From assembly GCA_963718915.1 (NCBI GenBank), contig CAVRAI010000004.1, positions 960,001 through 992,000 on the forward strand: a stretch of DNA of 32,000 nucleotides, given 5' to 3'. Made by a program: the position numbers and the translations under genes. Under the pieces are notes generated by a model. It was not told where the DNA came from, did not search any database, and worked only from the letters and a program-made list of their open reading frames with translations. The DNA is from an uncultured Chloroflexia bacterium. GTDB taxonomy: Bacteria; Chloroflexota; Ktedonobacteria; Ktedonobacterales; JADMIN01. Each line of letters begins with the position of its first letter. The stretch's first letter is position 1. Positions 9,608 to 29,045 of the stretch are shown one piece after another.

Positions 9608-11817
9608 GATGGTTCTGGCAGCGTCGACGTCAGCGGCAAGCAGAAGTTGCGGCGCCATCATCCGCGGCGACCCATTCGAAAGCTGTTCAGCGTGCGCCCA
9701 CGACCAGCGGACGCCTTGGCCAGCCGCGGCTACTCACTGGCGATCTGCTGGCGCTTGCGCGCGACTACCTTCAGTCGGTCGGTGGGCGGGTGCGCGTCGA
9801 GGATGAAGATGTGCTTTCCGCAACGCTGCCTGATGGCAGTCTGGTGCGCTACACCACGACGCTGGCGAAGGCGCGCGCCGACGAGAGTATGACGCTGTTG
9901 GTTGAAGGCAGCGAAGCTCTTGCCGTGATGCTCGATGATATTGCTACCCGCTCCCGACTCACCGCGTTGCGTTTGACATCTGTGGCTAATCCGGTCGCGC
10001 TTGCCGTTGAGCAGGGGCGACTGGCGTTGCATTGGCGGACTGCTGGACCGCTCTCTGCGCGTGTGGTGCAACACGACGAGTCGGTTGCCGTCGAGCTTGC
10101 TTATCTCGTTGTTGCGCGAGACCGATATGGACGCCAGGATGTGTGGGTGCGGCAGGCAGTGGAAACCGCGTTTGGAAGAACCGTACCGATGCTTTCGGAT
10201 ACCGCGCTGGCGCCTGCCCAGCCAGATGTTGTTCCCGCGGATCACGAGCAACAATTAATTCTGGCGCGTGCCTCAGCCGAGCGTTTGATAGAGGAGACCC
10301 TCGCGGCGACAGGCGTTTTCCTGAGGCAGCGATCGCTCGACGAATATCGTCGACGGCTGGAAGAAGTGGCCACCACGTTTGACCGACTTCAACACGAATC
10401 ACCAGAGACCGCGCGAGCCGCCAAGATTGGAAGGAAACGCGAGATCTCCGCGCTCTCAGAGGTCTACGCGGTGGATGTTGAGGCCCGACTGGAAAGCGCC
10501 TGTTTCATAAGATCGAGTCTCGCTCAAGTCGCGTTACGTCCATCCAATGGAAACACCGAACTGCTGGTTCATGTGGATCTGGGACGGCAGTGTGTAATTC
10601 TGCCAGACTGTTCCGTCTGCGGGATGAGCATGCAAGCAGGCTACGTCTGTGATTCGGGGCATGCGCTCTGCGCTCAGTGCGCGCTGGCATGCGAACAGTG
10701 TGGCGCCTGGCGATGTGGCGCCTGTGGTGAGCCAGAGCAGGTCACCTGTGCGAAGTGCGGGCAAACAATTGACCAGCCCGCCGTTTCTCGTAAGGATGCA
10801 ACGGTTCTGGTCGCTGGCGAGGCGCTGAGCGTGCACCATCTCGAGTTGCTTCCGCCGGAGATGTGGTGTACAGCAATGGATTGGCTCCTCTTGAACCAGG
10901 GGATTACCGTAGAATCTCGGCGAAGTGTCGGATCGCTTGCCATCTGGCAAGGGGAATCATCTACAGGCAAGGTGGTCGCGGCCTCTATTCGCCCAATAGA
11001 GCAGCAGTCGCTCGATGAAGCTGCTTTGCGTCAGGCAGCCGCGCATCTGGCGCCGGAGCAACGCTCTGTGACCCGGATGGTGTTTTCGACGGCCCCCGCG
11101 ACCCGTGAGGCCATTCAGGCAGCAGAGCAACTCGGTATTCAAGTAGTTGATCGATCCACGCTCGAAAGCCTGTTGGCCAACCTGGCAGCGGCGCATGATC
11201 GCGAGCGCGAGCGCCAACTGGAAGACATGCAGGCGCGCGCCGATGCCGCGAATGCTACCCGGCAGGCCATGCTTAATGTGGTTGACGCCGTGGATCATGG
11301 GCTTGCTTCGCTACGGCGTTCCCGTCGAGCAGGCAGCCGTGTGGCAATCGCCGGGACAGCCGCCAGTCGCGCTCTCGCCGAGGCGCGCACTGCTTTCGAG
11401 CGAGCGTCGCTAGCGTGGGAAACGCTTCTATTTGACTGGGTGGGGTCATTTGGCGAGCGTCCGGCACGGAACGGTAACCTTGTGGTGCAGGGCGATGTGA
11501 GCCGCTTCGAGGAGATGGGCGAGCGTGCCTTTCATCTACAGACCACGCTGCTCGACGCCACAGCGCTGCTGGTGGCAACCGCCGCGCACGGTGAGGCTGG
11601 CTACCTGGCCTGGCGTCAGGCTGTGGTAGAAGAATGTATCGCGCGGTGCGAGTCGTGGCGCTGGCGCATTCGCACCTTTGATCCAACGGTCTGGGGCGAT
11701 TTCGACCGCGCCTGGAACGCGAACGCGGCAGCAAAAGCTGCCGAGGCCAGGACTGCCGCTGGACATGCCACAGCCCGCGCGGATAAAGCCCAGGCGCAGG
11801 CGCTCCGCGCGGGGTAG
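9604..11817 (+). CDS. 737-aa hypothetical multidomain protein: Arg-rich N-terminus, unassigned alpha/beta region, CxxC zinc-ribbon cluster, degenerate Mrr-like nuclease-fold segment, Ala/Arg-rich helical tail
   Basis: Its ATG at 9604 overlaps the helicase TGA (ATGA at 9604-9607). Residues 336-385 read CSVC-x11-CDSGH-x2-CAQC-x3-CEQC-x4-CGAC-x8-CAKC. Residues ~418-525 resemble the Mrr/restriction-endonuclease layout. Coding confidence is high; function is unknown. Confidence 0.8.
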   Translation: MRWFWQRRRQRQAEVAAPSSAATHSKAVQRAPTTSGRLGQPRLLTGDLLALARDYLQSVGGRVRVEDEDVLSATLPDGSLVRYTTTLAKARADESMTLLVEGSEALAVMLDDIATRSRLTALRLTSVANPVALAVEQGRLALHWRTAGPLSARVVQHDESVAVELAYLVVARDRYGRQDVWVRQAVETAFGRTVPMLSDTALAPAQPDVVPADHEQQLILARASAERLIEETLAATGVFLRQRSLDEYRRRLEEVATTFDRLQHESPETARAAKIGRKREISALSEVYAVDVEARLESACFIRSSLAQVALRPSNGNTELLVHVDLGRQCVILPDCSVCGMSMQAGYVCDSGHALCAQCALACEQCGAWRCGACGEPEQVTCAKCGQTIDQPAVSRKDATVLVAGEALSVHHLELLPPEMWCTAMDWLLLNQGITVESRRSVGSLAIWQGESSTGKVVAASIRPIEQQSLDEAALRQAAAHLAPEQRSVTRMVFSTAPATREAIQAAEQLGIQVVDRSTLESLLANLAAAHDRERERQLEDMQARADAANATRQAMLNVVDAVDHGLASLRRSRRAGSRVAIAGTAASRALAEARTAFERASLAWETLLFDWVGSFGERPARNGNLVVQGDVSRFEEMGERAFHLQTTLLDATALLVATAAHGEAGYLAWRQAVVEECIARCESWRWRIRTFDPTVWGDFDRAWNANAAAKAAEARTAAGHATARADKAQAQALRAG

Positions 11818-11959
11818 ATGTATTCTGTATGATGATGGCTATTTATCCATTGTCGGCGGACCTGATATGTGTGATAAGTTGAAAGCATCCACTGTGGCTT
11901 CACCGACAAGCTGATCCACCGGCAATGATTGCCCGCCTCAAAGAGGAGGATGAGTGACG

Positions 11960-12808
11960 ATGCGTGTAGGAGTTGGGCTGCCCACGACGTTTCCTGGTGT
12001 GAGCGGTCGACTCATCATCGACTGGGCTCAGAGCGCTGAGGCGCAAGGGCTGGGCAGCCTTGGCGTGCTGGATCGAGTTGTGCATGATGGCTTCGAACCG
12101 CTGGCCGCGCTCGCGGCTGCAGCGGCCGTTACGTCCATTATCCCGCTCGTCACAATGATTGTCATCAGTCCTCTGCGCAACACAGCATTGTTGGCGCGAC
12201 AGTCCTTGTCTGTGCATGCGCTCTCTGGAGGCCGCCTTTCGCTTGGCGTGGCCGTTGGCGCGCGTAAAGACGATTACAATGCCGCCGGGATAGACTACAG
12301 CAGTCGCGGGCGGCGCCTTGCCGAGCAGTTGGCATCGATCCGTGGCCTTTGGGAACAGCGGCCAATGGCGATGCCACTTGAGATGCCCTCCACGCCCGAG
12401 TTGCTTGTGGGTGGTGGCAGCGATATCACGTTTGCTCGTGTGGCCCGTTACGCCGATGGCTACGTACATGGTGGCGGACCACCACGCGCCTTTGCACGTG
12501 CCGCCGATAAAGCGCGCGCTGCCTGGGCCGATGCTGGTCGTCCGGGCAAGCCAGGACTGTGGGGACAAGGTTACTTTGCGCTTGGGGATGATGCGACTGT
12601 CGCCGCCGGAATTGCCTACATGCGCGAGTACTATGCTTTCACGGGGCCGTATGTCGAGCGTATCGTCGCAGAATTGCTGACAACGCCTCAATCGATAGCA
12701 CAATTTGTGCGAGGTTACGCAGAGGCTGGCTGTGATGATCTGGTGCTTTTTCCGGCGGTGGCGCATCCTGACCAACTGGGTCGTCTCGCCGCAGTCCTCG
12801 CTGGCTGA
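11960..12808 (+). CDS. luciferase-like monooxygenase (LLM) class, probably F420-dependent oxidoreductase
   Basis: MRVGVGLPT...GLGSLGVLDRVVH...GGRLSLGVAVGARKDDY...LVGGGS is the TIM-barrel LLM pattern. ATG 11960 lies 9 nt after AGGAGGA (11944-11950); the ORF opens at GTG 11954. Confidence 0.8.
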   Translation: MRVGVGLPTTFPGVSGRLIIDWAQSAEAQGLGSLGVLDRVVHDGFEPLAALAAAAAVTSIIPLVTMIVISPLRNTALLARQSLSVHALSGGRLSLGVAVGARKDDYNAAGIDYSSRGRRLAEQLASIRGLWEQRPMAMPLEMPSTPELLVGGGSDITFARVARYADGYVHGGGPPRAFARAADKARAAWADAGRPGKPGLWGQGYFALGDDATVAAGIAYMREYYAFTGPYVERIVAELLTTPQSIAQFVRGYAEAGCDDLVLFPAVAHPDQLGRLAAVLAG

Positions 12809-12846
12809 CCGATACAACTGGCTGAGCCTGTCATCTACGAAAAGAG

Positions 12847-15102
12847 TTGCGCGTGAAGGTCGTCATTCTTGGCGCTGGGCCAGCAGGCATGTATTGTGGA
12901 TTGCTGCTGAAGAAAGCACGACCCGACGCTGAGATCACCATTCTCGAGCGCAATCCAGCGGGTGCAACCTACGGTTGGGGAGTCGTCTTCTCTGACCGAA
13001 CGCTGGCCTCGTTTCGAGAGGCGGACTATCCTACCTATGCACGGATCACCGAGCAGTTTGTTCTGTGGGATGCGATAGATACGCGCTTCCACGGCGAGCT
13101 GATGCGGTGCGGAGGTCATGTCTTCGCGGGGCTGGCGCGCAAGGCGTTACTCGATATCCTGCGCGAGCGCTGTTTCGAGTTAGGCATTGCGATGCGTTTC
13201 GAGACAGACATCACCGACCTGACTGTAGTACCAGATTGCGATCTCTTCATCGCCGCAGATGGCGTCAATAGTCTTGTTCGCCAGCAGCAGGCAGCAACCT
13301 TCAGGCCAAATCTGCATTACGGCGCATCGAAGTATATCTGGCTCGGTACCAATCGAGTACTCGATGCGTTCACCTTTCTTTTTCAAGAGAACGAGCATGG
13401 TCTGTTTCAGGTGCATGCCTATCCTTTCAACGGGACGACCAGCACCTTCATCGTTGAGACTGACGAGGCGACCTGGCTGCGCGCGGGACTGGACAACGCG
13501 ACTGAGGACGAGAGTATCGCCTATTGTGAGCGGCTTTTCGCCGACGATCTACACGGCCATCGTCTGCTTGGCAACAACTCGAAGTGGATCAGTTTCGTGA
13601 CTGTCAAAAACGCCGTCTGGCGCTCTGGCAATACGGTTTTGCTTGGCGATGCCGCGCATACCGCCCATTTCTCGATAGGTTCTGGCACGAAGCTGGCGAT
13701 GGAAGACGCGATTGCCCTCGTCAACGCACTGAGTACCCATGGCGATCTTACCGAAGCGCTGACGATCTACGAACTGGAACGCCGCCCTGTTGTCGAAACG
13801 CTCCAGCAGGCCGCGCAGGAGAGCCGCGCCTATTTCGAAGGGATTGCACGCTATCGGAATCTGCCGCCGCGCCAGTTCGCCTTCAACCTGCTCACCCGTA
13901 GCGGGCGTATCAGCTACGATGATCTGCGACTACGTGACGGCCGGTTCGTGGAAGCGCTCGACCGCGATTTCACGGCTAACTTTCAGCCGTCAGACATGCT
14001 CATCGTCTCCCCCACTCCCTGGCTTACGCCGCTTGCGCTCTGTGATAGTATGGTACCCAATAGAGTAGCTATGGCGGTAACGGACACTGCGTCCGCCAGT
14101 AATGGACTTCCAGACAACTCGCTAGTGGGTCGACTCGGAGCGCGCGCGCAGGCAGGCGCTGGGTTGGTGATGACGCCGCCGGTTGCCGTCGCGCCGAATG
14201 CGCGGATTACGGCACAAGATGTGGGAATCTATAGCGATGAGCAACGGCAGGCATGGTTGTCACTGGTGACATACATGCGCCACCTGGATGCACACACATT
14301 GGTGGGCATCGTCTTGAATCATGCGGGTCGCCGCGGAAGCATGCAGTCGCGTCGGCGCGGGCTAGATGTGCCGCTACGTGATGGCGGCTGGCCTTTGGTC
14401 GCTCCCTCAGCGATACCATATACCCCAGCAGGAACGACACCGGATGCGTTGGATCGCGCGGGAATGGCGCGCATTCGCGACGAATTTGTACGGGCGACGC
14501 ATATGGCCGTTGAGGCGGGGTTCGATCTCCTGCAACTGCACGCCGCCCACGGCTATCTGCTCGCCAGTTTCCTCTCGCCGCTGACCAACATTCGCGACGA
14601 CGACTTTGGCGGCAGTCTCGCCAATCGGATGCGTTTCCCACTGGAGATATTCGATGCTGTGCGTGCGGCATGGCCAGCGCCCCGCCCGCTCGCTGTTGCG
14701 CTCAACGTCACCGATGGTGTGGCGGGCGGCCTCACCGTCGATGATGGCGTGACGATCGCGCGTGAGTTGAAGAATCATAGCTGTGATCTCATCGTGATCA
14801 TGGCCGGGCAGACCACACCCGCATCCCTCGCGCCATACCGCCGCGGATTCCTGACGCCGCTTTCGGATCGTGTGCGCAATGAGGCCGACATTCCTACGAT
14901 GGTCGGCGGTTATCTGCTTACCTCGAACGAAGCCAACACATTGCTTGCCGCAGGACGCGCTGACCTGTGTACACTAGAATATCCCTGGCCAGACGACGGC
15001 ATAATACCGGAAACATCACCTTCAACCGATGTGACTCACATTCGTTCTGAATCGCGTTCGACAAGGCGACGCGCGAAACAGGAGGCTCGACATGGCAGAT
15101 GA
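12847..15102 (+). CDS. bifunctional FAD-dependent aryl-CoA monooxygenase / Old-Yellow-Enzyme-like reductase (2-aminobenzoyl-CoA monooxygenase/reductase or salicylyl-CoA 5-hydroxylase family)
   Basis: The N-terminal half has VVILGAGPAGMYCG (GxGxxG), GWGVVFSDRTL, AADGVNSLVR and LLGDAAHTAHFSIGSGTKLAMEDA. The C-terminal half has OYE motifs HAAHGYLLASFLSPLTN(I)RDDDFGGSLANRMRFPLE. It is a single uninterrupted 751-aa frame. Confidence 0.88.
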   Translation: MRVKVVILGAGPAGMYCGLLLKKARPDAEITILERNPAGATYGWGVVFSDRTLASFREADYPTYARITEQFVLWDAIDTRFHGELMRCGGHVFAGLARKALLDILRERCFELGIAMRFETDITDLTVVPDCDLFIAADGVNSLVRQQQAATFRPNLHYGASKYIWLGTNRVLDAFTFLFQENEHGLFQVHAYPFNGTTSTFIVETDEATWLRAGLDNATEDESIAYCERLFADDLHGHRLLGNNSKWISFVTVKNAVWRSGNTVLLGDAAHTAHFSIGSGTKLAMEDAIALVNALSTHGDLTEALTIYELERRPVVETLQQAAQESRAYFEGIARYRNLPPRQFAFNLLTRSGRISYDDLRLRDGRFVEALDRDFTANFQPSDMLIVSPTPWLTPLALCDSMVPNRVAMAVTDTASASNGLPDNSLVGRLGARAQAGAGLVMTPPVAVAPNARITAQDVGIYSDEQRQAWLSLVTYMRHLDAHTLVGIVLNHAGRRGSMQSRRRGLDVPLRDGGWPLVAPSAIPYTPAGTTPDALDRAGMARIRDEFVRATHMAVEAGFDLLQLHAAHGYLLASFLSPLTNIRDDDFGGSLANRMRFPLEIFDAVRAAWPAPRPLAVALNVTDGVAGGLTVDDGVTIARELKNHSCDLIVIMAGQTTPASLAPYRRGFLTPLSDRVRNEADIPTMVGGYLLTSNEANTLLAAGRADLCTLEYPWPDDGIIPETSPSTDVTHIRSESRSTRRRAKQEARHGR

Positions 15103-15877
15103 CACCATTACGGGCAAACGGGCGCTCGTCACAGGCGCGAGCCGTGGCATCGGGCGCGCAATCGCTCTGGCGCTGGCGCAGGCTGGCGTCGATGTTGCGC
15201 TGGCGGCGCGCGGCGCCGACGAACTGGAGCAGGTAGCGGCGGAGATAACTGAGTGTGGCCGCAACGCCGCCGTGATTTCGTGCGATGTGAGCGATGTCGC
15301 GCAGGTTCAGCGAATGGTGGAGACGGCGCAGACACAACTTGGTGGCATTGATATCCTGGTGAATAATGCCGGAAGCGCTCTGAGCGCCAAGTTCCTTGGG
15401 CATCCCGATGAGATATGGCATCGTCTGCTGGCGCTGAATCTCACAGGCGTCTACTATGTCACCAAGGCAGTCGCGCCGGAGATGGTAGAGCAGAAGTGGG
15501 GACGAATTATCACCGTCGCCTCTGTTGCCGGGAAAGTCGGCAGCCGGTATACCGCCGCATATAGCGCCTCCAAGCATGGCGTGCTCGGACTGATGAAATC
15601 GGTTGCGATCGAGCTGGCTACCACTGGTGTCACCGTCAACTCGGTCTGCCCTGGATATGTCGATACACCGATGACGGATGCGGCAGTCGCCAATATGATT
15701 GCGCGTACTGGTATGAGCGAAGATGATGCCCGCGCATACCTCGCGAGCACGAACCCACAACGTCGGCTTGTCACCCCGGATGAAGTTGCGCGCGTCGTGC
15801 TCTTTCTTGCGCAGACGACCAGCGGTGGCATTACCGGCCAGGCGATCAATATCGATGGTGGCGCGGTGATGTGGTAG
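15092..15877 (+). CDS. short-chain dehydrogenase/reductase (3-hydroxyacyl-CoA dehydrogenase-like)
   Basis: VTGASRGIGRAIA (TGxxxGIG), NNAG, and a catalytic YSASK preceded by S. It overlaps the upstream gene by 11 nt. Confidence 0.9.
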   Translation: MADDTITGKRALVTGASRGIGRAIALALAQAGVDVALAARGADELEQVAAEITECGRNAAVISCDVSDVAQVQRMVETAQTQLGGIDILVNNAGSALSAKFLGHPDEIWHRLLALNLTGVYYVTKAVAPEMVEQKWGRIITVASVAGKVGSRYTAAYSASKHGVLGLMKSVAIELATTGVTVNSVCPGYVDTPMTDAAVANMIARTGMSEDDARAYLASTNPQRRLVTPDEVARVVLFLAQTTSGGITGQAINIDGGAVMW

Positions 15878-15914
15878 CCAGGGCCAGTCTGACTCAACGG
15901 AGAGGCTGCTGACG

Positions 15915-16706
15915 ATGGGGTACGACTTTCGGTACGCGGTCAAAGACGGCGTGGCCACGATCACGCTCGATAGACCTGAGAAGCTGAATGCGCTGACATT
16001 CGAGATATACGCCCAACTCCGTGATCTTTTCGATGCGTTACGCTATGAGGACGCGGTAAAGGTCGTCGTGCTGACCGGCTCAGGTGACGCCTTTTCGTCG
16101 GGTGGCGATGTACAGGAGATTATCGGCGAGTTGCTCAAGCGCGATCTGAAGGGCCATCTCGACTTCACCCGCATGACTGGCGCGGTTGTGCAGCATATGC
16201 GCCTGCTCGATAAGCCGATTCTCGCCGCGCTCAATGGCATGACTGCGGGCGCGGGTACGGTGCTGGCGCTGGCGTCCGATCTGCGAATAGCGTCGGAAAA
16301 GGCGCGCATTGCTTTCCTCTTCACCAGGGTTGGACTGACCGGCGCTGACATGGGCGCGGGCTATCTGCTTCCGCGTATTGTCGGGCTTGGGCGCGCCATG
16401 GAGTTACTGATGCTAGGCGATACGATTGATGCGGCGACCGCTGAGCGCTATGGGCTGGTCAATCGGGTTACGCCGCATGATGAGGTGATGTCTGTAACGA
16501 TGGAGTTGGCGCGTCGTCTGGCCGATGGGCCGTCGCAGGCGCTGGCGATGACCAAGCGTATGCTCAACAACGAACTAAGTATGGACCTGGTCTCGGCCAT
16601 CGAGGCGGAGGCGCAGGCGCAGGCATTGTTGTTGCTGGGCGAGGATCACCGCGCCTTCTACGAAGCTTTCACGGCGAAGCAAAAAACGACGTTTACAGGA
16701 CGGTGA
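15915..16706 (+). CDS. enoyl-CoA hydratase/isomerase (crotonase) family protein
   Basis: ITLDRPEKLNAL, VVLTGSGDAFSSGGD, LNGMTAGAGTVLALASDLRIA and TRVGLTGADMG, a typical crotonase-fold oxyanion-hole pattern. Confidence 0.9.
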   Translation: MGYDFRYAVKDGVATITLDRPEKLNALTFEIYAQLRDLFDALRYEDAVKVVVLTGSGDAFSSGGDVQEIIGELLKRDLKGHLDFTRMTGAVVQHMRLLDKPILAALNGMTAGAGTVLALASDLRIASEKARIAFLFTRVGLTGADMGAGYLLPRIVGLGRAMELLMLGDTIDAATAERYGLVNRVTPHDEVMSVTMELARRLADGPSQALAMTKRMLNNELSMDLVSAIEAEAQAQALLLLGEDHRAFYEAFTAKQKTTFTGR

Positions 16707-16712
16707 CGCTAG

Positions 16713-17123
16713 ATGAGCAAGCAGATTATCAATCCTGCGAGTTTGCCTGAGCCGCGTGGCTTCAACCACGGCTTGCTGACGTCTGGAGGCAGGCTGCTCT
16801 TCCTCGCCGGGCAGGATGCCAGCGACGGCGAGGGAACTATTGTGACTCCGGGCGACATGGTTGGTCAGTGCCGCCAGGTGCTTCATAACCTCCATGCCGT
16901 CGTCCATGAGGCAGGTGGTCAGATGGTGGATATCGTCAAGTTGAATGTCTTTGTGACGAGCCGCGACGCCTATGTGGCGCAGCTCAAACCGCTGGGCAGG
17001 CTGTTTCGTGAATATTTCGGCAACTACTATCCTGCGATGGCGCTCTTTGAGGTGGTGGGGCTCTTCCAACCAGAGGCGATGATCGAGATGGAGGGGTTCG
17101 CCGTGCTGGGCGTGGAGGAGTAA
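16713..17123 (+). CDS. RidA/YjgF family reactive-intermediate (enamine/imine) deaminase
   Basis: 136 aa with P.PRGFNHG....G.LLFLAGQ, a ...KLNVFV... segment and a C-terminal IEMEGFAV, which is the YjgF/RidA layout. It starts 6 nt after the crotonase stop. Confidence 0.85.
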   Translation: MSKQIINPASLPEPRGFNHGLLTSGGRLLFLAGQDASDGEGTIVTPGDMVGQCRQVLHNLHAVVHEAGGQMVDIVKLNVFVTSRDAYVAQLKPLGRLFREYFGNYYPAMALFEVVGLFQPEAMIEMEGFAVLGVEE

Positions 17124-17128
17124 GGCTA

Positions 17129-18280
17129 ATGGACTTTGAGCTTTCGCCAGAGCAGCAGCGGCTTCAGTCCCTCGCCCGTGACTTCGCAAATGATGAGGTA
17201 GCCCCTCTGGCGCGCACAGCCGACGAGACAGGCGAGTTCCCTATGCATCTCATCGGTCGCATGGCAACACTTGGTTTCCTCGGTGGCCCGATTGCGAAGG
17301 AAAATGGCGGCTCGGCGATGGACGCCGTGGCGTTCGCGCTGGTCTGCGAAGAGTTGGGGCGCGCCGATTCGTCCGTACGAGGGCTATTGACGGTGCATGC
17401 GAGTCTCGTCTCGGGCTGCCTGGAGCAGTGGGGCACTGCCGAGCAAAAACAGCGTTACCTGCCCAGACTGACCAGTGGCGAATGGATCGGCTGTTACTGC
17501 CTCACCGAGCCAGATGCCGGGTCGGACGCCGCGAACATTCAGACGACTGCCACAGCAGATGGTGAGGGCTATCTGCTCAATGGCGAGAAGATCTGGATCA
17601 CCAACGGTACTATGGCGCGTCTTGGTGTCGTTTTCGCCACACGTGACCGTATCGAGCGCCATAAGGGCATCTGCGCGTTCCTGGTCGAGGCCGACACACA
17701 GGGGCTGCGGCGTGAAGAGATGCCCGGCGTTGAGTTAGGCCATCGCGCCTCCGACCACGCGCACATCACGTTCGAGAACTGCCGTGTCTCGGCCAGCGCC
17801 ATGCTCGGCGAGCCAGGTGAGGGCTTCAAAATTGCCATGTCGGCGCTGGATCGCGGGCGGCTGGGTGTTGCTGCGGGCGCCGTGGGTATCGGCCAGGCCT
17901 GTCTGGATGCCTGCGTCCAGTGGGCGCGTGAGCGGCGACAATTCGGACGTCGCCTCGGCGATTTCCAGATGGTACAGGCGAGCATTGCCAACATGGCGGC
18001 GGATATCGCGGCGGCGCGGCTGCTGGTTTATCACGCAGCATGGCTCGTAGACGCTGGCCGCCTGGCGACGCAGGCGGTTTCTAGCGCCAAGTTGTTCGCC
18101 ACCGAGGCAGCGGCCAGGGCGGCGTCCGAGGCGGTCTTGCTCTATGGCAATCGCGGCTATTCGAGCGAGTATCCCGTTGAGCGCTATTATCGTGACATCA
18201 AAGGTTTGCAGATTTACGAGGGGGCAAGCAACATCCAGCGCATCATCCTCGCGCGAGAATTGATCGGGCGCGAGCAGTAG
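17129..18280 (+). CDS. acyl-CoA dehydrogenase
   Basis: 383 aa with CLTEPDAGSDA, GEKIWITNG, RRQFGRRLGDFQ and IYEGASNIQRIILAREL (catalytic Glu region). Confidence 0.92.
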   Translation: MDFELSPEQQRLQSLARDFANDEVAPLARTADETGEFPMHLIGRMATLGFLGGPIAKENGGSAMDAVAFALVCEELGRADSSVRGLLTVHASLVSGCLEQWGTAEQKQRYLPRLTSGEWIGCYCLTEPDAGSDAANIQTTATADGEGYLLNGEKIWITNGTMARLGVVFATRDRIERHKGICAFLVEADTQGLRREEMPGVELGHRASDHAHITFENCRVSASAMLGEPGEGFKIAMSALDRGRLGVAAGAVGIGQACLDACVQWARERRQFGRRLGDFQMVQASIANMAADIAAARLLVYHAAWLVDAGRLATQAVSSAKLFATEAAARAASEAVLLYGNRGYSSEYPVERYYRDIKGLQIYEGASNIQRIILARELIGREQ

Positions 18281-18328
18281 TGGGCCGGAGGCGATGGCGC
18301 ATCCAGCTCGAGAGCGGAGGGTTCGCAG

Positions 18329-19666
18329 ATGGTGTATTCCGAATACTGGAATCCGAAGAATGAGATGCTGCCACGCGAGCAGCTTCAGGCACTCCAACTG
18401 GCGAAGCTGCAACGTATGACGCAATGGGCATACGCCCGTAGCCCGTTTCACAGGGTGCGATTCGACGTCGCTGGCTTCCATCCCGACCAACTCAAGACGC
18501 TGGATGATCTGCGGCGTATCCCCTTCATGACGCGCCAGGAGTGGATGGCGACGCAGGCGGAGCAGCCGTTGTTTGGCGCGCTGCCGACGACCAGTCAGGA
18601 TAACGCCATTCGCTACCACCTGACCTCCGGCACCAGTGGGAGTGTTCCCATCCGCGTGCTGGATGGCATGAAGGACTGGGAGTGGATCGCCGAGATGTGG
18701 AGCTACGGCTTCTGGGGGTTTGGTGTTCGCCCGGAAGATGTCGTCTATTTCGCCTTTGGCTATGGTTCCTTCATCGGCTTCTGGGGCGCGCATTACTGCT
18801 GCGAGAAGATTGGCTCCCTTGTGATTCCTGGCGGCGCGCAGACCACCGAGGCGCGCGTCAAGCAAATTGTCGAGATGGGCGTCACCACCGTCTGCTCCAC
18901 TCCGACCTACGCGCTTCGCCTCTGGCAGCAGGCGCAGGAGATGGGCATTGACCTGACCCAGAGTGCTGTGAACAAGGTTATCCTCTCTGGAGAGCCATCT
19001 GGCTCTATTCCAGCGGTCAAGCGGCAGCTCGAAGAAGCCTGGGGGGCGAAGTGTGGCGATACCGCAGGCATGACGGAGCTGGGTACGATCATGATCTTCG
19101 AGTGCTCGCACCAGCCCGGCGGGACCCACATTATTGAAGACCACTTCATCGAGGAGGTCGTCCATCCCGAGACAGGCGAGCCTGTGCCATATGGGGAGTT
19201 AGGCGAGCGCGTTGTGACCTCTTTTGGGCGCGGCTTCATTCCCGTGCTGCGCTATCGCACCAAAGACATGGTGCTGAAGGTACCATACTCCACTTGTGAC
19301 TGTGGCCGCACTGGTGATATCTATCAAGGCGGCATCCGCGGTCGCTGGGACGACATGAAGCTCATCCGTGGCACCAACGTCTATCCACGCGCGGTCGAGG
19401 CGCTCATTCGCGAGCACGACGCCATCGACGAGTTCCAGCTCTACATCTGGCGTAACGATATCCGCGATGAGATATCGATTAAAGTCGAGATGAAGCCGGG
19501 GCGTGAGGATGAATGGCCGGTGCTGAGTGAGGAGCTAGCGAACGAGCTTGCCGCCGCTCATGAAGGGTTGCGTTTCATCATTGAGTTGATGCAGCCGGGC
19601 ACACTACCGCGCTTCGAACTCAAGGCGAAACGGCTGAAGGATGACCGGCCCGTCGCTGTCTACTAG
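18329..19666 (+). CDS. phenylacetate-CoA ligase (PaaK)-family aryl/arylacetyl-CoA ligase
   Basis: The N-terminus E.LPREQLQALQLAKLQRM and PFMTRQEW are PaaK-like. YHLTSGTSG is the AMP-binding P-loop, followed by GDTAGMTE and a C-terminal ...IRGTNVYP... segment. An SD GGAGGG sits 7 nt upstream of the start. Confidence 0.88.
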   Translation: MVYSEYWNPKNEMLPREQLQALQLAKLQRMTQWAYARSPFHRVRFDVAGFHPDQLKTLDDLRRIPFMTRQEWMATQAEQPLFGALPTTSQDNAIRYHLTSGTSGSVPIRVLDGMKDWEWIAEMWSYGFWGFGVRPEDVVYFAFGYGSFIGFWGAHYCCEKIGSLVIPGGAQTTEARVKQIVEMGVTTVCSTPTYALRLWQQAQEMGIDLTQSAVNKVILSGEPSGSIPAVKRQLEEAWGAKCGDTAGMTELGTIMIFECSHQPGGTHIIEDHFIEEVVHPETGEPVPYGELGERVVTSFGRGFIPVLRYRTKDMVLKVPYSTCDCGRTGDIYQGGIRGRWDDMKLIRGTNVYPRAVEALIREHDAIDEFQLYIWRNDIRDEISIKVEMKPGREDEWPVLSEELANELAAAHEGLRFIIELMQPGTLPRFELKAKRLKDDRPVAVY

Positions 19667-19723
19667 CCGTATCTCGCGGGCATATCGAATGGTTGATGAA
19701 GATGATTATGAGGAGTGACTGCA

Positions 19724-19930
19724 ATGGCCGAGACCGATATCCTGGGAACAGCACAGACGCCAATGGAGCAGGAGACGCTACGAGCGTACGACCTGCTCAA
19801 GCAGCTTGCCGCGCGCGATGACCTGCCGCCGTGCGCCGCACGAAACGTGCGTAAGGCGCTTGCCTGTCTCTGGCAGGTGACGAATGACCTCGACCTCCAG
19901 TTCGAGCAGTTGTACGAACTCGGCGTCTAA
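19724..19930 (+). CDS. 68-aa hypothetical helical protein immediately upstream of the amidase
   Basis: ATG 19724 lies 8 nt after GAGGAG (19710-19715); the ORF track opens at GTG 19715. The stop is 17 nt before the amidase ATG. I recognise no motif. Confidence 0.45.
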   Translation: MAETDILGTAQTPMEQETLRAYDLLKQLAARDDLPPCAARNVRKALACLWQVTNDLDLQFEQLYELGV

Positions 19931-19947
19931 CGAGCGAGGATAGTGTG

Positions 19948-21477
19948 ATGAGCGAGTGGCAGGCGCCGCACGGCGATCTGGAGGAACAGACCATCGCCGA
20001 TCTCCAGGCGGCGATGGAATCTGGGCAGCGTACGTCCCGGCAACTGGTGGAGGCGTATGTAGAGCGGATTCAGGCGCTTGATGTGAGCGGCCCGACACTG
20101 CGCGCGGTGATCGAACTGAACCCCGATGCGCTGGCAATCGCCGAAGCGCTCGACCGCGAGCGCTCTGAGCGTGGCGCGCGTGGACCACTCCACGGCATCC
20201 CAATCCTGCTCAAAGACAACATCGACACCGCCGACAGGATGGAGACGACCGCTGGCTCCCTGGCGCTGGTCGGGGTAAAGCGCGCGCAAGATGCCTTCGT
20301 AGCCGCTCGGCTGCGAGCAGCAGGCGCGGTATTGCTCGGCAAGGCGAATATGAGCGAGTGGGCCAACTTCCGTTCAACCCATTCCTCCAGTGGCTGGAGC
20401 GCGCGTGGCGGTCAGGCGCTCAATCCCTACGCGCTTGACCGGACGCCCTGCGGCTCAAGCTCTGGCTCGGCGGCTGCCGTCGCAGCCAACCTCTGCGCCG
20501 CGTCCGTGGGCACCGAGACCGATGGCTCGATTCTCTGCCCGGCCTCGATCAACGGTGTGGTAGGTATCAAGCCGACTGTTGGACTGACCAGCCGCGCGGG
20601 CGTTATTCCTATCTCGCACAGTCAGGATACGGTTGGCCCGTTCGGGCGCACCGTCGCCGACGCGGCAATCCTGCTGGGCGCGCTGGCGGGCGAGGATGCG
20701 CGCGACCCAGCCACCTTGGCGCGTGCCGGGCAGATACCTGCGGACTATCGGCAATATCTCAACGCAGACGCCCTGCGTGGCGCGCGCATTGGTATCCCGC
20801 GCGAGGTTCATACTGGCTTCAGCGAGAAAACGGACGCTATCTTTGCCACCGTCGTTGAGACGCTGCAATCGCTTGGTGCGGTGCTGGTCGATCCAGCGAA
20901 TCTGCCGTCGTCGAAGGAGATGCGCACGTCAGAGGCTGAGCTGACCGTGCTGCTCTACGAGTTCAAGGCTGACCTGAACGCCTATCTCGCGATTCTTGGA
21001 CACGAGACACAGGCGCATACCCTTGAAGCGCTGATTGCCTTCAACCAAGAGCATGCCCCGCAGGAGATGCCCTATTTTGGGCAGGAGCTATTTGAGATGG
21101 CGCAGGCGAAAGGCCCGCTCACCGACGAGGAGTATCTTGCAGCGCGTGCCGAATGCTTGCGGCTGGCGCGTGATGAGGGAATAGATGCCGTCATGCGCGA
21201 GCATAATCTTGATGCGCTCTGTATGCCAACAGGAGAGCCAGCCTGGAAAATCGACCTGATCGATGGCGATCATAGCATGGGTGGCGCAAGCCAACCTGCC
21301 GCGCTGGCTGGATATCCGGCGATTAGCATTCCCGCTGGATACACATTCGGTCTACCGCTCGGTGTCACCTTCATGGGCCAGGCGTTCAGCGAGCGTAAGC
21401 TTATCGGCTTCGTCTATGCCTTCGAGCAGGCGACGAAGCTACGACGCGCGCCGACCTATCCAGCGCACGTGCCGTAG
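19948..21477 (+). CDS. amidase-signature (AS) family amidase
   Basis: GIPILLKDNIDT (catalytic Lys), CGSSSGSAAAVAA and GTETDGSILCPAS (Ser-cisSer region). No signal peptide is apparent. Confidence 0.9.
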   Translation: MSEWQAPHGDLEEQTIADLQAAMESGQRTSRQLVEAYVERIQALDVSGPTLRAVIELNPDALAIAEALDRERSERGARGPLHGIPILLKDNIDTADRMETTAGSLALVGVKRAQDAFVAARLRAAGAVLLGKANMSEWANFRSTHSSSGWSARGGQALNPYALDRTPCGSSSGSAAAVAANLCAASVGTETDGSILCPASINGVVGIKPTVGLTSRAGVIPISHSQDTVGPFGRTVADAAILLGALAGEDARDPATLARAGQIPADYRQYLNADALRGARIGIPREVHTGFSEKTDAIFATVVETLQSLGAVLVDPANLPSSKEMRTSEAELTVLLYEFKADLNAYLAILGHETQAHTLEALIAFNQEHAPQEMPYFGQELFEMAQAKGPLTDEEYLAARAECLRLARDEGIDAVMREHNLDALCMPTGEPAWKIDLIDGDHSMGGASQPAALAGYPAISIPAGYTFGLPLGVTFMGQAFSERKLIGFVYAFEQATKLRRAPTYPAHVP

Positions 21478-21528: not shown

Positions 21529-21557
21529 TTGACCAGGGGCGCTTTTCTTGTCATACT
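21529..21557 (+). promoter_or_regulatory. candidate sigma70-type promoter TTGACC-17-CATACT upstream of phaJ
   Basis: -35 is ttgacc at 21529-21534, the spacer is 17 nt, and -10 is catact at 21552-21557. The element lies 50 nt upstream of ATG 21607, in the first real gap after the long operon. Confidence 0.4.
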
Positions 21558-21606: not shown

Positions 21607-22092
21607 ATGACTGTTCGCCGCGACCACCCAATTGCTACCAACTGCCATTGGCGCCAGAACTGGAGTTACCCGTTGACTGACCTTATCCGTGAATTGCGTC
21701 CACTACCAGCCCTTGGAGACCGCGCTGAGCGCACCCGCACCTTTACTGAAGCCGATGTTGTCGAATACGCCGAGTTGAGCGGCGACCTCAATCCCATTCA
21801 CCTGGACGACGACTACGCCGCCAAATCACGCTTCGGGCGGCGTATCGTCCATGGCTTCCTCACTGCGGGCATGATTTCCGCACTGCTAGGCACCGAACTG
21901 CCGGGCATCGGCTCTATCTACGCCTCACAGACATTCAGGTTTCTGGCGCCCGTCTATATTGGTGACACCATCACCGCCAGCGTCGAGGTGATCGAGATTC
22001 GCGAGGAAAAGCGGCTCGTCACATTGCGCACCGATTGTGTCAACGCAGACGGCGTTCTTGTGCTGACAGGCGAAGCCGTCATTAAGTGCTGA
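21607..22092 (+). CDS. phaJ: MaoC-like (R)-specific enoyl-CoA hydratase
   Basis: The hot-dog hydratase motif YAELSGDLNPIHLDDDYA...IVHGFL is present, in a PHA-locus context. The true start may lie downstream of 21607. Confidence 0.82.
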   Translation: MTVRRDHPIATNCHWRQNWSYPLTDLIRELRPLPALGDRAERTRTFTEADVVEYAELSGDLNPIHLDDDYAAKSRFGRRIVHGFLTAGMISALLGTELPGIGSIYASQTFRFLAPVYIGDTITASVEVIEIREEKRLVTLRTDCVNADGVLVLTGEAVIKC

Positions 22093-22149
22093 GCGCTTGC
22101 CACACCTGAGATATACCCACAACTACGTAAGATTGCCTGCCGTAGCCGC

Positions 22150-22179
22150 TTGCAACCTGCGCCTGCCGCGTCGCATACT
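22150..22179 (+). promoter_or_regulatory. candidate promoter TTGCAA-18-CATACT upstream of phaB, overlapping a GCATAC-N12-GTATGC inverted repeat
   Basis: -35 is at 22150-22155 and -10 at 22174-22179. The inverted-repeat arms are 22173-22178 and 22191-22196. Confidence 0.35.
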
Positions 22180-22253
22180 GCACCTGTCTCGTATGCACTC
22201 TCATCGTGGCACATGAGCCGCGATGAAATCTCCTGATGAGAGGGAGGCACGGC

Positions 22254-23000
22254 GTGGCAACTCTTGAGGGAGCGGTTGTACTGGTCACGGGCGCGGGCCG
22301 TGGCATCGGACGAGCCATCGCTGAGGAACTTGGTGCTGGTGGCGCGCTCGTCGTAGTCAATTATGGCAGCAGTCGTGGCCCGGCAGAAGAGGTAGTGAGC
22401 ACGATCACCGAGGGGGGATCGAAGGCCATTGCCGTTCAAGCGGATGTCTCCGATCCCGAGCAGGCAGCGCGACTCATCGAGCAGACGGTGGCCCAGTTCG
22501 GACGTATTGATGCCCTTGTCAACAATGCTGGCATCACCATTGATCGCTCGATGAAGAATCTCTCGGTTGAAGACTGGAATCGGGTGATCCAGAACAACCT
22601 CAACAGCTGTTTCTACACCGTCAAAGCTGCTCTTCCCCACCTTATAGAGCAGCAGAGCGGCACAATCGTTAATATCAGCTCATTCGTCGGCCATATGGGC
22701 AACTTTGGCCAGGCCAATTATAGCGCTGCCAAGGCCGGCATCATCGGCTTCACCAAGACGGCGGCCATTGAAATGGCAAGGTATCACGTGACGGTCAACT
22801 GCGTCTGCCCGGGCTTCACCGAGACCGACATGTACACAGTTGTGCCCGAGAAGGTGAAAGAGCAGATTGTCAAGCGCATTCCGCTGGGGCGTGTCGGCAC
22901 ATCGCGGGAAATCGCGCGCGCCGTCCGCTATCTCATCGTGGATGGCGACTATATCACCGGCCAGACGCTCAACGTCAACGGCGGCATTTTCATGATGTGA
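22254..23000 (+). CDS. phaB: NADPH-dependent acetoacetyl-CoA reductase / 3-oxoacyl reductase (FabG/PhaB type SDR)
   Basis: VTGAGRGIGRAIA, NNAGIT, a YSAAKAG catalytic tetrad region, and a C-terminal GQTLNVNGG. GTG 22254 lies 6 nt after GGGAGG (22242-22247); the ORF opens at ATG 22236. Confidence 0.9.
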   Translation: MATLEGAVVLVTGAGRGIGRAIAEELGAGGALVVVNYGSSRGPAEEVVSTITEGGSKAIAVQADVSDPEQAARLIEQTVAQFGRIDALVNNAGITIDRSMKNLSVEDWNRVIQNNLNSCFYTVKAALPHLIEQQSGTIVNISSFVGHMGNFGQANYSAAKAGIIGFTKTAAIEMARYHVTVNCVCPGFTETDMYTVVPEKVKEQIVKRIPLGRVGTSREIARAVRYLIVDGDYITGQTLNVNGGIFMM

Positions 23001-23027
23001 GCCGACTCAGCACGGCACAGACAGAGA

Positions 23028-23060
23028 CAGACCGGAGCGAATCGCCCCGGTCTGCGTGTT
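23028..23060. terminator. bidirectional intrinsic terminator between convergent phaB and phasin genes
   Basis: An 8-bp stem pairs cagaccgg (23028-23035) with ccggtctg (23047-23054). Inner gcg/cgc pairs extend the stem, and a T-containing tract cgtgtttcg follows. Confidence 0.5.
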
Positions 23061-23081
23061 TCGACGAATGCTATCGCCAGT

Positions 23082-23417
23082 CTAGCGGGCCTTTTGAGCC
23101 GCCTGGCGTGTCACATCGATTCCCTTCTGATAGAAGGCAATTGGCGCGGCAAGCAGATCAAGATAGGCGTTGATCGATTCCTGGGCGACCTTCTGGAATG
23201 CCGTTCGCTGCTTCTCGGACTGATCGGCCATTGTCTGGAATAGCCCGCGTGCGGTCTCTTCCTGGGCGCGGAGTTGTGTGACGCCATTCTCGAAGGCCGT
23301 TTGCGCGAACTGAATGTTGCGCTCCTGTGCCGCTACGATGCCGCTGGCGACCGCTTGGTACGCCTGGCGGGTCGTCTCGGTCCACTCTAGCGCAGCCTGA
23401 TTGATGCCCTTTTCCAT
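23082..23417 (-). CDS. phaP: putative phasin (PHA granule-associated protein)
   Basis: 111-aa, entirely helical-looking, Ala/Gln-rich protein. It starts 39 nt downstream of the PadR/PhaQ-like gene on the same strand, mirroring the Bacillus phaQ-phaP arrangement. The assignment rests mainly on context. Confidence 0.5.
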   Translation of the reverse strand: MEKGINQAALEWTETTRQAYQAVASGIVAAQERNIQFAQTAFENGVTQLRAQEETARGLFQTMADQSEKQRTAFQKVAQESINAYLDLLAAPIAFYQKGIDVTRQAAQKAR

Positions 23418-23456
23418 GTGATGTCATCCCTTTCGGCGGTGAATCCGCCACTGGTC

Positions 23457-23873
23457 TTATCGCGAGTTGTTTCTATCTTCAGGCTGACCTGTATACAGCC
23501 GAAAGAACGTATTCATCATCGTGCGGTAGTGTTCGATGCCGCTGGCCCAGAGCTTCAAATACGCCTCGCCAGCTTCGGTGATCGAATACATCCGCCGCGC
23601 TGGACCCTGCCCGCTGGTATCCCAGGTGGAGTTGACCATGCCATCTTTCTCCAACTGGCGCAGCACCCGGTAGAGCGATCCGGGATTCATCGCGGCGAAG
23701 CCAAACCCTGCCATGCGCTCCATCAGGTCGTAACCGTACGAACTCCACTCGCGCAGGAGTAGCAGGATAACCGCGGTCATCCAGTTACGTGGGGTTGCGC
23801 CTGCCTTCGCCTCCGTCCCGGAGGTATCGGTATCATGTTCGGTTTGCTGGGATTTGGATTTCCTGGTGCTCAT
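23457..23873 (-). CDS. phaQ: PadR-family transcriptional regulator (PhaQ-like PHB-responsive repressor candidate)
   Basis: The PadR winged-helix core is VILLLLREWSSYGYDLMERM...NPGSLYRVLRQLEKDGMVNSTW...RRMYSITEAGEAYL. ATG 23873 lies downstream of a consensus promoter; the ORF track extends to 23969. Confidence 0.85.
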   Translation of the reverse strand: MSTRKSKSQQTEHDTDTSGTEAKAGATPRNWMTAVILLLLREWSSYGYDLMERMAGFGFAAMNPGSLYRVLRQLEKDGMVNSTWDTSGQGPARRMYSITEAGEAYLKLWASGIEHYRTMMNTFFRLYTGQPEDRNNSR

Positions 23874-23893
23874 GTTTTTACGGCCCTTATACG

Positions 23894-23936
23894 GTGCATC
23901 TATGTGCATTATACATATAGATGCACTGCGTGTCAA
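23894..23936 (-). promoter_or_regulatory. perfect consensus promoter TTGACA-17-TATAAT (minus strand) interlocked with a 10-bp perfect inverted repeat and an ATGT-N7-ACAT box
   Basis: On the minus strand, -35 is ttgaca (rc of 23931-23936), the spacer is 17 nt, and -10 is tataat (rc of 23908-23913). The inverted-repeat arms are gtgcatctat (23894-23903) and atagatgcac (23917-23926). The central atgtgcattatacat contains ATGT-N7-ACAT around the -10. Confidence 0.6.
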
Positions 23937-24095
23937 GGGGGAAGAGCTAGTGGTCCAGGGCGAACGCAAACCGCGATGATCTCGGCAGCCGCTAAGGCCA
24001 GCATGTGACTATTTGCCGCACGATGCCGCCTGAAGTAGTGATATGTTTGCGCGCGTCGATGCTGTCTGCTATGGCGCTGCACGCATCCAGTGTAT

Positions 24096-24113
24096 ATACT
24101 GCCATGGCAGTAT
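24096..24113. promoter_or_regulatory. 18-bp perfect palindrome ATACTGCCATGGCAGTAT upstream of phaR-phaC (candidate operator)
   Basis: The sequence at 24096-24113 reads identically on both strands. It overlaps a TATACT -10-like hexamer (24095-24100) and lies 38 nt upstream of ATG 24151. Confidence 0.35.
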
Positions 24114-24150
24114 CTCTTTGTAGACTGCCCAAGGCCACGGAGGTCTTACG

Positions 24151-24657
24151 ATGAGTCAGCCCAATGATATTCCTAATCCTTTCGACCCATTTAGTTTCTG
24201 GCGAACCACGCAGAGTGCTTCGCTGGAGGCATGGTCGAAGGCGATGATTGAACTTGTCAATAGCGAGGCGTACGCTGAGGCCACCGGTCGCATACTGGAT
24301 AGCTATCTCGCCGCATCGGTTCCGATGCGCAGGGCTGTTGAGCACGCGATGACGCAGGTTCTGGGGCAGGTTAATATGCCAACGCGCGCCGAGGTGCTCA
24401 GTCTCGCCGAGCGTATGACCAACATCGAGATGCGACTGGACGATCTTGATGCTCGCTTCGATGAGATGCAGCGTATGTTGACACAGATTGTCACAAATAC
24501 CGCGCACGATCGAGTGACGCCTGTGGCCGCTGCAACGAAGAGTTCGCCAAAATCGGCGGGCGCATCAACTCCTGCTACGAACAGCAGCCGTCCGCGTCGC
24601 TCGCGCGCTGCCAGCGCCTCAGGTCGTTCCGCAACTGCCACGCGCAGCAAGGAGTAA
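24151..24657 (+). CDS. phaR: PHA synthase small subunit (PhaR of class IV / PhaE-like)
   Basis: 168 aa with FDPFSFWRT...W.K, then QVNMPTRAEVLSLAERMTNIEMRLDDLD. As I recall it, this pattern matches Bacillus PhaR / the PhaE C-terminal region. The stop is 9 nt before phaC, whose AAGGAG SD overlaps it. Confidence 0.7.
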   Translation: MSQPNDIPNPFDPFSFWRTTQSASLEAWSKAMIELVNSEAYAEATGRILDSYLAASVPMRRAVEHAMTQVLGQVNMPTRAEVLSLAERMTNIEMRLDDLDARFDEMQRMLTQIVTNTAHDRVTPVAAATKSSPKSAGASTPATNSSRPRRSRAASASGRSATATRSKE

Positions 24658-24666
24658 TCGTATCCT

Positions 24667-26782: not shown

Positions 26783-26827
26783 GAGAACGCAGTGGAAAAA
26801 TCCACTACTCTCAGGGTACAGTCCTTA

Positions 26828-26846
26828 CCGGACACATACTGTCCGG
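26828..26846. promoter_or_regulatory. inverted repeat CCGGACA-N5-TGTCCGG in the cupin/WYL divergent intergenic region (candidate operator)
   Basis: The arms are ccggaca (26828-26834) and tgtccgg (26840-26846), perfect 7-bp arms. They lie 31 nt upstream of the regulator ATG 26877. Confidence 0.35.
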
Positions 26847-26876
26847 TTATCGGCGAATCTCGCCAATGAGGAAATT

Positions 26877-28979: not shown

Positions 28980-29045
28980 GGACAAACTACCGCCATTCTC
29001 CTCGATGTCATATGAATACCCGCAACGCCAGTGGAGGAGCTTTCC

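Follow-up and report, generated by a model that had tools for sequence, protein, structure and literature searches.

A 32,000-nt stretch of DNA from an uncultured Chloroflexia bacterium of the order Ktedonobacterales (assembly GCA_963718915.1, contig CAVRAI010000004.1, positions 960,001 to 992,000; hereafter the window) contains, at 11960–21477, a genuine operon of a known pathway type, that of the abm cluster of Azoarcus evansii, and is not categorically new in this regard. It represents a previously unremarked variant of that type, in which a luciferase-like (LLM) oxidoreductase of the coenzyme F420 type accompanies a fusion of a flavin adenine dinucleotide (FAD) monooxygenase with a degenerate Old Yellow Enzyme (OYE) half, a PaaK-type ligase takes the position of AbmG, and a small protein of a new family is encoded. 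With regard to function, we lean slightly towards the reading that the operon serves the aerobic, coenzyme A (CoA)-dependent catabolism of anthranilate, or of a very close ortho-aminobenzoate, by a variant of the abm pathway in which the LLM reduces the ring in place of the degenerate OYE half.

The fusion gene (12847–15102) encodes a protein of 751 aa, or of 749 aa if the start at 12853 is used, with PF01494 at residues 3–321 and PF00724 at residues 394–707. Its N-terminal half is a group-A FAD monooxygenase in which the GxGxxG, DG and GD motifs are kept, while the C-terminal half, an OYE-like TIM barrel, has degenerate flavin mononucleotide (FMN)-contact motifs; the PDB matches of the two halves were VioD and thermophilic-like OYEs, respectively. 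The best NCBIfam match was NF006101, ‘bifunctional salicylyl-CoA 5-hydroxylase/oxidoreductase’, at 869 bits and therefore below the cutoff of 1078, compared with scores of 1441 for the Ralstonia and 795 for the Haladaptatus homologue. A similar order was observed with the model of NamA, an OYE (Ralstonia 293, window 187, Haladaptatus 163). In line with the NF006101 match, the JGI annotation of fusion homologues is anthraniloyl-CoA monooxygenase, and the kinship with the family of 2-aminobenzoyl-CoA monooxygenase/reductase (ACMR) and SdgC, which had been proposed in an earlier, sequence-only reading of this DNA, therefore holds.

A neighbour-joining tree of 81 uncharacterised fusion proteins splits into a clade A of 24 members (Chloroflexota including the window, Actinomycetota, Thermomicrobia and Haladaptatus) and a clade B of 57 members from all other phyla, to which the fusions encoded on Tsukamurella and Arthrobacter plasmids also belong. 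The OYE hallmarks of clade B are essentially invariant and match those of 7O0T and 5OCS, namely NRvvvSPM[C/D][M/Q]YS, E-M-T, lQlxHxGxKG, HxAHGYL, VRxS and a C-terminal GR, whereas in clade A these elements are degenerate or deleted. In the window, SPM[C/D]xY of β1 has become AVTDTA, EMT of β2 has become PPV, Gln489 of β3 is replaced by Val, Lys496 by Arg and Arg618 of β5 by Ala, and the C-terminal GR reads EY, which leaves HAAHGYL as the sole surviving hallmark. Among the 57 clade-B homologues, conservation of five of the lost elements (β1, β2, the β3 Gln, the β5 Arg and the C-terminal GR) reaches at least 95%. Furthermore, the first His of the HxAHGYL motif is Asn or Asp in 11 clade-A members. 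Of the positions with at least 95% invariance in clade B, clade A keeps 80 of 93 in the monooxygenase half compared with 44 of 94 in the OYE half. Moreover, the OYE half is the better conserved of the two within clade B (ratio of OYE to monooxygenase identity 1.16) and the less well conserved within clade A (0.87). The OYE half had been taken for a working reductase in the sequence-only reading; the disappearance of the FMN-contact motifs throughout clade A speaks against this view.

In order to compare gene neighborhoods, the window proteins were run by tblastn on 80 genomic loci, and all open reading frames (ORFs) of 85 loci were clustered. The LLM gene (11960–12808; 282 aa, PF00296) was found directly upstream of the fusion gene in 27 of the 28 clade-A loci with upstream DNA and in none of the 59 clade-B loci, and in 9 of 19 loci the end of its coding sequence overlaps, with the stop codon, the start of the fusion gene. 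LLM and degenerate OYE half are thus strictly linked. Rather than the peripheral component for which it had previously been taken, the LLM is the defining partner gene of clade A.

Several lines of evidence indicate that the LLM is probably F420-dependent, as judged from its relatives and its modelled fold. Its best NCBIfam match was TIGR03619 (F420_Rv2161c; 126 bits, cutoff 167), with TIGR03621 also at the top, and the haloarchaeal and actinomycete copies likewise matched F420 families best, below cutoff. The best PDB sequence matches were the F420-dependent oxidoreductases 9GNC and 9G64. In addition, the top 18 Foldseek matches of its AlphaFold2 model (predicted local distance difference test score, pLDDT, of 87) were all F420 enzymes, including KvPepI with F420, FGD2/Rv0132c and Mer; the LLM shares the TIM-barrel fold of these F420H2 luciferase-like hydride transferases and of the picrate reductase Fht/Npd of Rhodococcus and Nocardioides. 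None of these enzymes is known to act on aryl-CoA esters or to partner a flavin monooxygenase, and our literature search retrieved no paper linking aryl-CoA hydroxylases with F420 or LLMs. All 27 LLM-linked loci belong to Chloroflexota, Actinomycetota or Halobacteria, for which F420 production has been described, and LLM-family F420H2 enzymes such as picrate reductase transfer hydride to aromatic rings (PMC8498797). No cofactor fingerprint telling F420-dependent from FMN-dependent LLMs was found in PMC6279831.

From the gene content and order, the family assignments, their conservation, the motif loss and the LLM link, we infer a substrate, the use of F420 and a catalytic role for each protein, as follows. 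The PaaK-family ligase, possibly helped by a 68-aa protein, would form the aryl-CoA thioester in place of the benzoate-CoA-ligase-type AbmG, and the intact FAD monooxygenase half would then hydroxylate the ring para to the amino group. The adjacent LLM, often translationally coupled and probably using F420H2, would deliver a hydride to the non-aromatic intermediate, after which a Rid protein lacking Arg105 may deaminate the resulting enamine or imine, a PaaG-like crotonase may isomerise or open the ring, and a short-chain dehydrogenase/reductase (SDR) together with an acyl-CoA dehydrogenase (ACAD) would carry out β-oxidation-like steps and chain shortening. Both clades keep the same downstream toolkit, so that the same kind of intermediate is expected and clade A needs some ring reductase. 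The LLM is proposed for this step since it is the only oxidoreductase that is both clade-A-specific and strictly linked. More tentatively, and with somewhat less than an even chance of being correct, in F420-producing lineages the OYE half might now be a cofactor-less scaffold, with the translationally coupled, F420H2-dependent LLM performing the dearomatising reduction.

Alternatively, the fusion could be a canonical bifunctional ACMR that both hydroxylates and reduces, with the LLM catalyzing another step, e.g., F420H2 reduction of a 5-oxo or β-keto group. We regard this as rather unlikely. The two-domain architecture is indeed retained with both halves conserved, the His-x-x-His-Gly-Tyr motif is intact in the window, and the closest solved relatives of the LLM are KvPepI and FGD2/Rv0132c, two enzymes that act on keto or hydroxy groups. 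However, the window has lost five FMN-contact elements that do not vary among the 57 clade-B proteins and solved OYEs, and even the first His of the remaining motif is Asn or Asp in the 11 clade-A members mentioned above. Moreover, clade B runs the same downstream genes without an LLM, and an extra ketoreduction therefore fails to explain why the LLM tracks the degenerate OYE half.

Several observations weigh against ring reduction by the LLM. The OYE half keeps HAAHGYL in the window and, within clade A, a mean identity of 52% and the 44 invariant positions, which indicates that it is under purifying selection and altered rather than dead; it may still bind flavin in a non-canonical manner. 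The LLM scores below every curated F420-family cutoff, and its nearest solved relative, KvPepI, is a ketoreductase and would fit another step. The correlation between LLM and OYE state goes back to what is essentially a single evolutionary event, which means that the loci do not count as independent observations, and AbmA and SdgC themselves are absent from the tree. Finally, the link between LLM and degenerate OYE half has a single possible exception in L052, a locus whose fusion shows a clade-A-like, degenerate OYE motif and whose 10 kb of upstream DNA contain no LLM gene. This locus (8782–12154, from an Actinomycetes metagenome-assembled genome, MAG) carries a divergent ACAD gene upstream of the fusion, and its contig ends 61 nt past the fusion.

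The ligase gene (18329–19666) encodes a protein of 445 aa with the short two-domain architecture of PaaK (PF00501 and PF14535), which is shared with PaaK1/2, the Bacteroides protein 4R1L, 2-hydroxyisobutyryl-CoA synthetase and NatL2/AjiA1. Its score with TIGR02155 was 262, compared with a cutoff of 646, its PDB matches were 4R1L, 6HDW and 2Y27, and its P-loop reads TSGTSGSVP, in which the usual Lys is missing. No paaABCDE, paaG or paaZ genes were present in the window. The protein is a member of the PaaK family, proposed here as an anthranilate-CoA ligase, and not PaaK itself. Among the 85 loci, 12 carry a PaaK-like and 27 a benzoate-CoA-type ligase with no overlap between the two groups, and this mutual exclusivity is the pattern expected for a non-orthologous replacement of AbmG. 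The claim that the ligase differs in class from that of the described clusters is hereby substantiated. The window ligase is 63–66% identical to copies in Actinomycetota loci that also carry genes for tryptophan 2,3-dioxygenase (TDO) and kynureninase, and the PaaK-family enzyme NatL2 adenylates 3-hydroxyanthranilate (PMC7204872).

A 68-aa ORF (19724–19930), preceded by a GAGGAG ribosome-binding site, follows the ligase gene in the window as in 10 of the 12 PaaK-type loci, even where the pair is inverted. The protein is a conserved hypothetical one with no Pfam or NCBIfam match; its 828 homologues are all annotated as ‘hypothetical’ and their alignment is extremely conserved. The AlphaFold2 model (pLDDT 82) consists of a helical hairpin and a conserved, low-confidence C-terminal tail, for which Foldseek returned no match with E ≤ 0.001, but only insignificant generic helical hairpins. 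An MbtH-like protein was considered and rejected, given that the Trp/Pro signature is absent. We suspect that the 68-aa protein is a ligase accessory, and its family may be an obligate partner of the PaaK-type anthranilate-CoA ligase; it has no known counterpart in the PaaK-family systems named above.

With respect to the substrate, TDO-like genes were found beside the fusion gene in 12 loci, kynureninase genes in 7 (TIGR01814, above cutoff) and a class-V aminotransferase-like gene in 6. These kynurenine-pathway neighbors occur in both clades and include the PaaK-type loci L016, L019 and L049; kynU is also located near the fusion gene in the Haladaptatus and Arthrobacter plasmid clusters. The conserved Rid deaminase gene fits a nitrogen-bearing intermediate. 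Furthermore, Arthrobacter grown on anthranilate contains anthraniloyl-CoA, C7H7NO3-CoA and C7H8O4-CoA esters (PMC3534580). Taken together, TDO and kynureninase in related loci, the Rid gene and the Arthrobacter CoA esters make anthranilate the most probable substrate. The idea that the substrate may be new is weakened by the kynurenine-pathway genes in related loci, including PaaK-type ones.

A different substrate that would suit a ligase of the PaaK type, e.g., an arylacetate (2-aminophenylacetate or indoleacetate), salicylate or another ortho-substituted benzoate, is in our opinion improbable. It is true that arylacetates or small acids are the substrates of most characterised members of the ligase family and that the fusion family bears the NCBI name of salicylyl-CoA 5-hydroxylase, and the lack of any kynurenine-pathway gene in the window, which extends to its close relatives, counts for such a substrate and against anthranilate. 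Conversely, the PaaK-like ligase fills the slot of the benzoate-CoA-type enzyme and never co-occurs with it, the PaaK-type loci of Actinomycetota adjoin TDO and kynureninase genes, the conserved Rid deaminase speaks for an amino substituent, and PaaK-family enzymes that activate aminobenzoates exist.

The remaining core enzymes are candidates for the lower part of the pathway. The SDR gene (15092–15877; PF00106) encodes a classical enzyme with TGxxxGIG and YxxxK motifs and in either clade lies immediately behind the fusion gene in most loci (at approximately 2.2–2.4 kb from the fusion start, roughly the length of the fusion gene); the protein is likely a keto- or hydroxyacyl-CoA oxidoreductase. 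The crotonase (15915–16706) passes NF006107 (PRK08258), a family specific to ACMR clusters, with a score of 381 against a cutoff of 330, the copy of the abm-type cluster of Ralstonia reaching 505, and is present in 49 of the 85 loci. In alignments with PDB entries (3G64, approximately 65% identical, and the PaaG-type 6SLB), both hydratase glutamates are absent and the PaaG-like Asp is kept, which makes the protein a candidate isomerase or ring-opening hydrolase. The ACAD (17129–18280), conserved in 40 loci, has all three ACAD Pfam domains and its catalytic Glu in a YEG motif, and resembles short-chain acyl-CoA dehydrogenases in the PDB search.

The RidA-like protein (16713–17123; YjgF/L-PSP, PF01042) has the YjgF fold, and a Rid-family gene lies beside the fusion in 32 of the 85 loci, in both clades. 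Aligned with PH0854 and others, the carboxylate-binding Arg105 of canonical RidA, a 2-iminoacid deaminase, is replaced by Met (PAR to PAM), a loss that is consistent with a substrate devoid of a free carboxylate. The protein may serve as an enamine/imine deaminase that acts on the CoA-bound ring product. In one Chloroflexota cluster (L085, 16448–17311), Rid is fused to a Clp_N domain in a protein of 287 aa.

The same enzymes bear on a hydroxylase-only, SdgC-like route, in which an aromatic 5-hydroxyaryl-CoA would be processed without ring reduction and the crotonase, ACAD and SDR would serve elsewhere. A degenerate reductase half would by default yield the aromatic 5-hydroxy product, actinomycete plasmids have thioesterase, cupin and fumarylacetoacetate hydrolase (FAH) clusters around a fusion gene, and thioesterase genes adjoin several clade-A actinomycete loci; yet domain scans of the window detected neither a thioesterase nor a ring-cleavage dioxygenase nor an FAH hydrolase, and the fusions of the sdg-like plasmid clusters belong to clade B, their OYE motifs being intact. 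In addition, the window keeps the abm-type NF006107 crotonase, Rid and ACAD, and we regard this route as very improbable. Two such plasmid clusters, from Tsukamurella (L087, 3547–10361) and Arthrobacter (L088, 3454–10397), surround a clade-B fusion with another set of genes, namely those for RidA, an FAH hydrolase, a cupin, an acyl-CoA thioesterase, an AMP ligase and a PaaX regulator; the Arthrobacter plasmid also has kynU in the vicinity. They look like an sdg-type route and may act on anthranilate.

The proposed abm-type scheme can be set beside the systems described so far. The abm cluster of Azoarcus evansii, the subject of a 2001 study by Schuhle et al., reportedly comprises a ligase, ACMR, three β-oxidation enzymes, a ‘translation inhibitor’ (YjgF/RidA), a MarR regulator and an ABC binding protein. 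Common to this cluster and the window are the FAD-monooxygenase/OYE fusion, an aryl-CoA ligase, a crotonase, an ACAD, a hydroxyacyl-CoA-type dehydrogenase and a YjgF/RidA-type gene, as well as a pathway in which all intermediates are CoA esters and no ring-cleavage dioxygenase takes part, the latter being predicted from the genes in the case of the window. It is this match in core content that identifies the operon as a known cluster type. The window differs from abm in that its ligase is of the PaaK family and has a 68-aa partner instead of being of the benzoate-CoA-ligase type, an LLM stands ahead of the fusion, the OYE half is without FMN-contact motifs, and neither a MarR regulator nor an ABC binding protein is part of the operon. 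With the SdgC pathway of Streptomyces sp. WA46 and the sdg-like plasmid clusters, the window has in common the fusion family and the activation to a CoA ester before ring hydroxylation. Unlike the window, the sdg-like clusters hold a thioesterase, a cupin dioxygenase and an FAH hydrolase, with oxygenolytic ring opening after CoA removal, and the OYE motifs of their fusions are intact.

The gene set has a very wide distribution among soil phyla, and at least 8000 fusion homologues with E ≤ 1e-20 were retrieved in a word-indexed search. Fusion, SDR, crotonase, Rid and ACAD form a core that is common to Chloroflexota, Actinomycetota, Gemmatimonadota, Acidobacteriota, Rokubacteria, Eremiobacterota, Proteobacteria and one haloarchaeon, while the LLM is clade-restricted and so is the pair of PaaK-like ligase and small ORF. 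The closest fusion proteins, which are 81–87% identical to that of the window, come from Ktedonobacterales/Chloroflexia MAGs. The locus L084 is syntenic with the window from FtsY through PhaC. The eight genes from the LLM gene to the 68-aa ORF are present in the same order in the Ktedonobacteria loci L010, L011, L083 and L084, and partly in L008 and L086. This recurrence of gene order is far beyond chance, and the comparison of gene neighborhoods, which had been put forward as a check, thus revealed an abm-type core across phyla and an eight-gene order in Ktedonobacteria. The cultured Ktedonosporobacter rubrisoli (L083) carries the LLM, fusion, SDR, crotonase, Rid, ACAD, PaaK-like ligase and small ORF, and no amidase. 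In this strain, the only cultured relative found, the ligase is called as two ORFs of 160 and 296 aa (15573–16915), which may reflect a frameshift or a pseudogene.

Many clade-B fusions of myxobacteria, Planctomycetota and Acidobacteriota stand alone (e.g., L022, L025, L032, L036, L039, L067 and L069), with no ligase, crotonase, Rid or ACAD gene within 10 kb. Given these cases, the fusion family may have roles beyond the aryl-CoA pathway. In addition, homologues of approximately 370 aa that correspond to the monooxygenase half only (H85–H99) adjoin benzoate-CoA-ligase genes on plasmids of Rhizobium, Sulfitobacter, Rhodococcus and Rhizorhabdus; these stand-alone proteins may be aryl-CoA hydroxylases without any reductase half.

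As regards the layout of the operon, the ORF listing and the Pfam/NCBIfam scans gave nine closely spaced genes, all on the plus strand, instead of the ten that had been counted before. The intergenic gaps are, in order, 38, −11, 37, 6, 5, 48, 57 and 14–17 nt, which matches the uninterrupted same-strand string with gaps of −11 to 57 nt described in the sequence-only reading, and the domain assignments made there for all named genes were likewise recovered. An AGGAGG ribosome-binding site lies upstream of the ATG of the LLM gene, and the 142-nt gap ahead of this gene holds a weak, putative promoter-like element read in the sequence, TTGTCG-17-(TGT)GATAAG (11850–11878, plus strand). While the element proposed earlier is thus present, it was missed by a promoter consensus scan, which found 7 sites compared with 4.7 ± 2.3 expected by chance from shuffled sequence; as the scan is not enriched over the shuffles, the site provides no evidence for a promoter. 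A leader RNA or riboswitch ahead of the operon was rejected as well, since the Rfam scan yielded no family at the gathering threshold; no tRNA was found in the window.

The last gene of the string (19948–21477) encodes a cytoplasmic, Pam-like amidase (PF01425; NF006006 score of 717, cutoff 534), with the peptide amidase 1M21 as its best PDB match (E 6e-149) and approximately 50% similarity to the Stenotrophomonas peptide amidase. It occupies this operon position only in the three closest relatives (L011, L027 and L084) and is absent from L083, L086 and elsewhere. Hence, the amidase, which had been counted as part of the set, turns out to be a lineage-specific add-on missing from most related clusters, and we treat it as a recent appendage that may supply the pathway with an amide precursor or be unrelated to it. 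A role as kynurenine formamidase or N-acylanthranilate amidase is unsupported, the nearest characterised relative being a peptide amidase and the gene not being conserved with the cluster.

Downstream of the amidase gene, a MaoC gene (21607–22092) and a second SDR gene (22236–23000) were by default not accepted as operon members, since they are set off by 129 and 143 nt, a promoter-like site is located at 21529–21557, and both fit better into the adjacent polyhydroxyalkanoate (PHA) module; the MaoC gene included in the Haladaptatus cluster speaks for a possible membership of MaoC. The PHA module (21607–25770) comprises a MaoC/PhaJ-like dehydratase, an acetoacetyl-CoA-reductase-like (PhaB-like) SDR, a weakly PhaE-like ORF and a class III PhaC-like synthase, together with a 111-aa helical ORF and a PadR regulator, both on the minus strand, and is syntenic in L011, L027 and L084. 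On the other side of the operon, at 7739–11817, the gene of an SNF2-family helicase (622 aa) and that of a 737-aa Cys-rich protein without Pfam match share 4 nt, and this pair is kept directly upstream of the operon in the three closest relatives. A WYL/helix-turn-helix regulator, an opposite-strand protein with two Clp_N repeats and RadC are encoded at 26781–29765.

The steps that follow ring dearomatisation in the aerobic anthraniloyl-CoA route have been unknown since the 1990s, and the route has hence been omitted from pathway-prediction tools (PMC9007349); the sequence-only reading was accordingly right to call these steps poorly defined. The conserved partners of the fusion, i.e., the NF006107 crotonase, the Arg-less Rid, the ACAD and the SDR, provide a short list of candidates for the missing lower-pathway steps. 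If the proposed scheme is true, it would represent the first F420-dependent step in aerobic aryl-CoA catabolism, and a flavin module would have been replaced by a deazaflavin enzyme with its relic still fused to the hydroxylase. Ring reduction by the LLM would further imply that the ‘bifunctional’ annotation is wrong for clade A, and would extend the roles of F420 into central aromatic and tryptophan catabolism.

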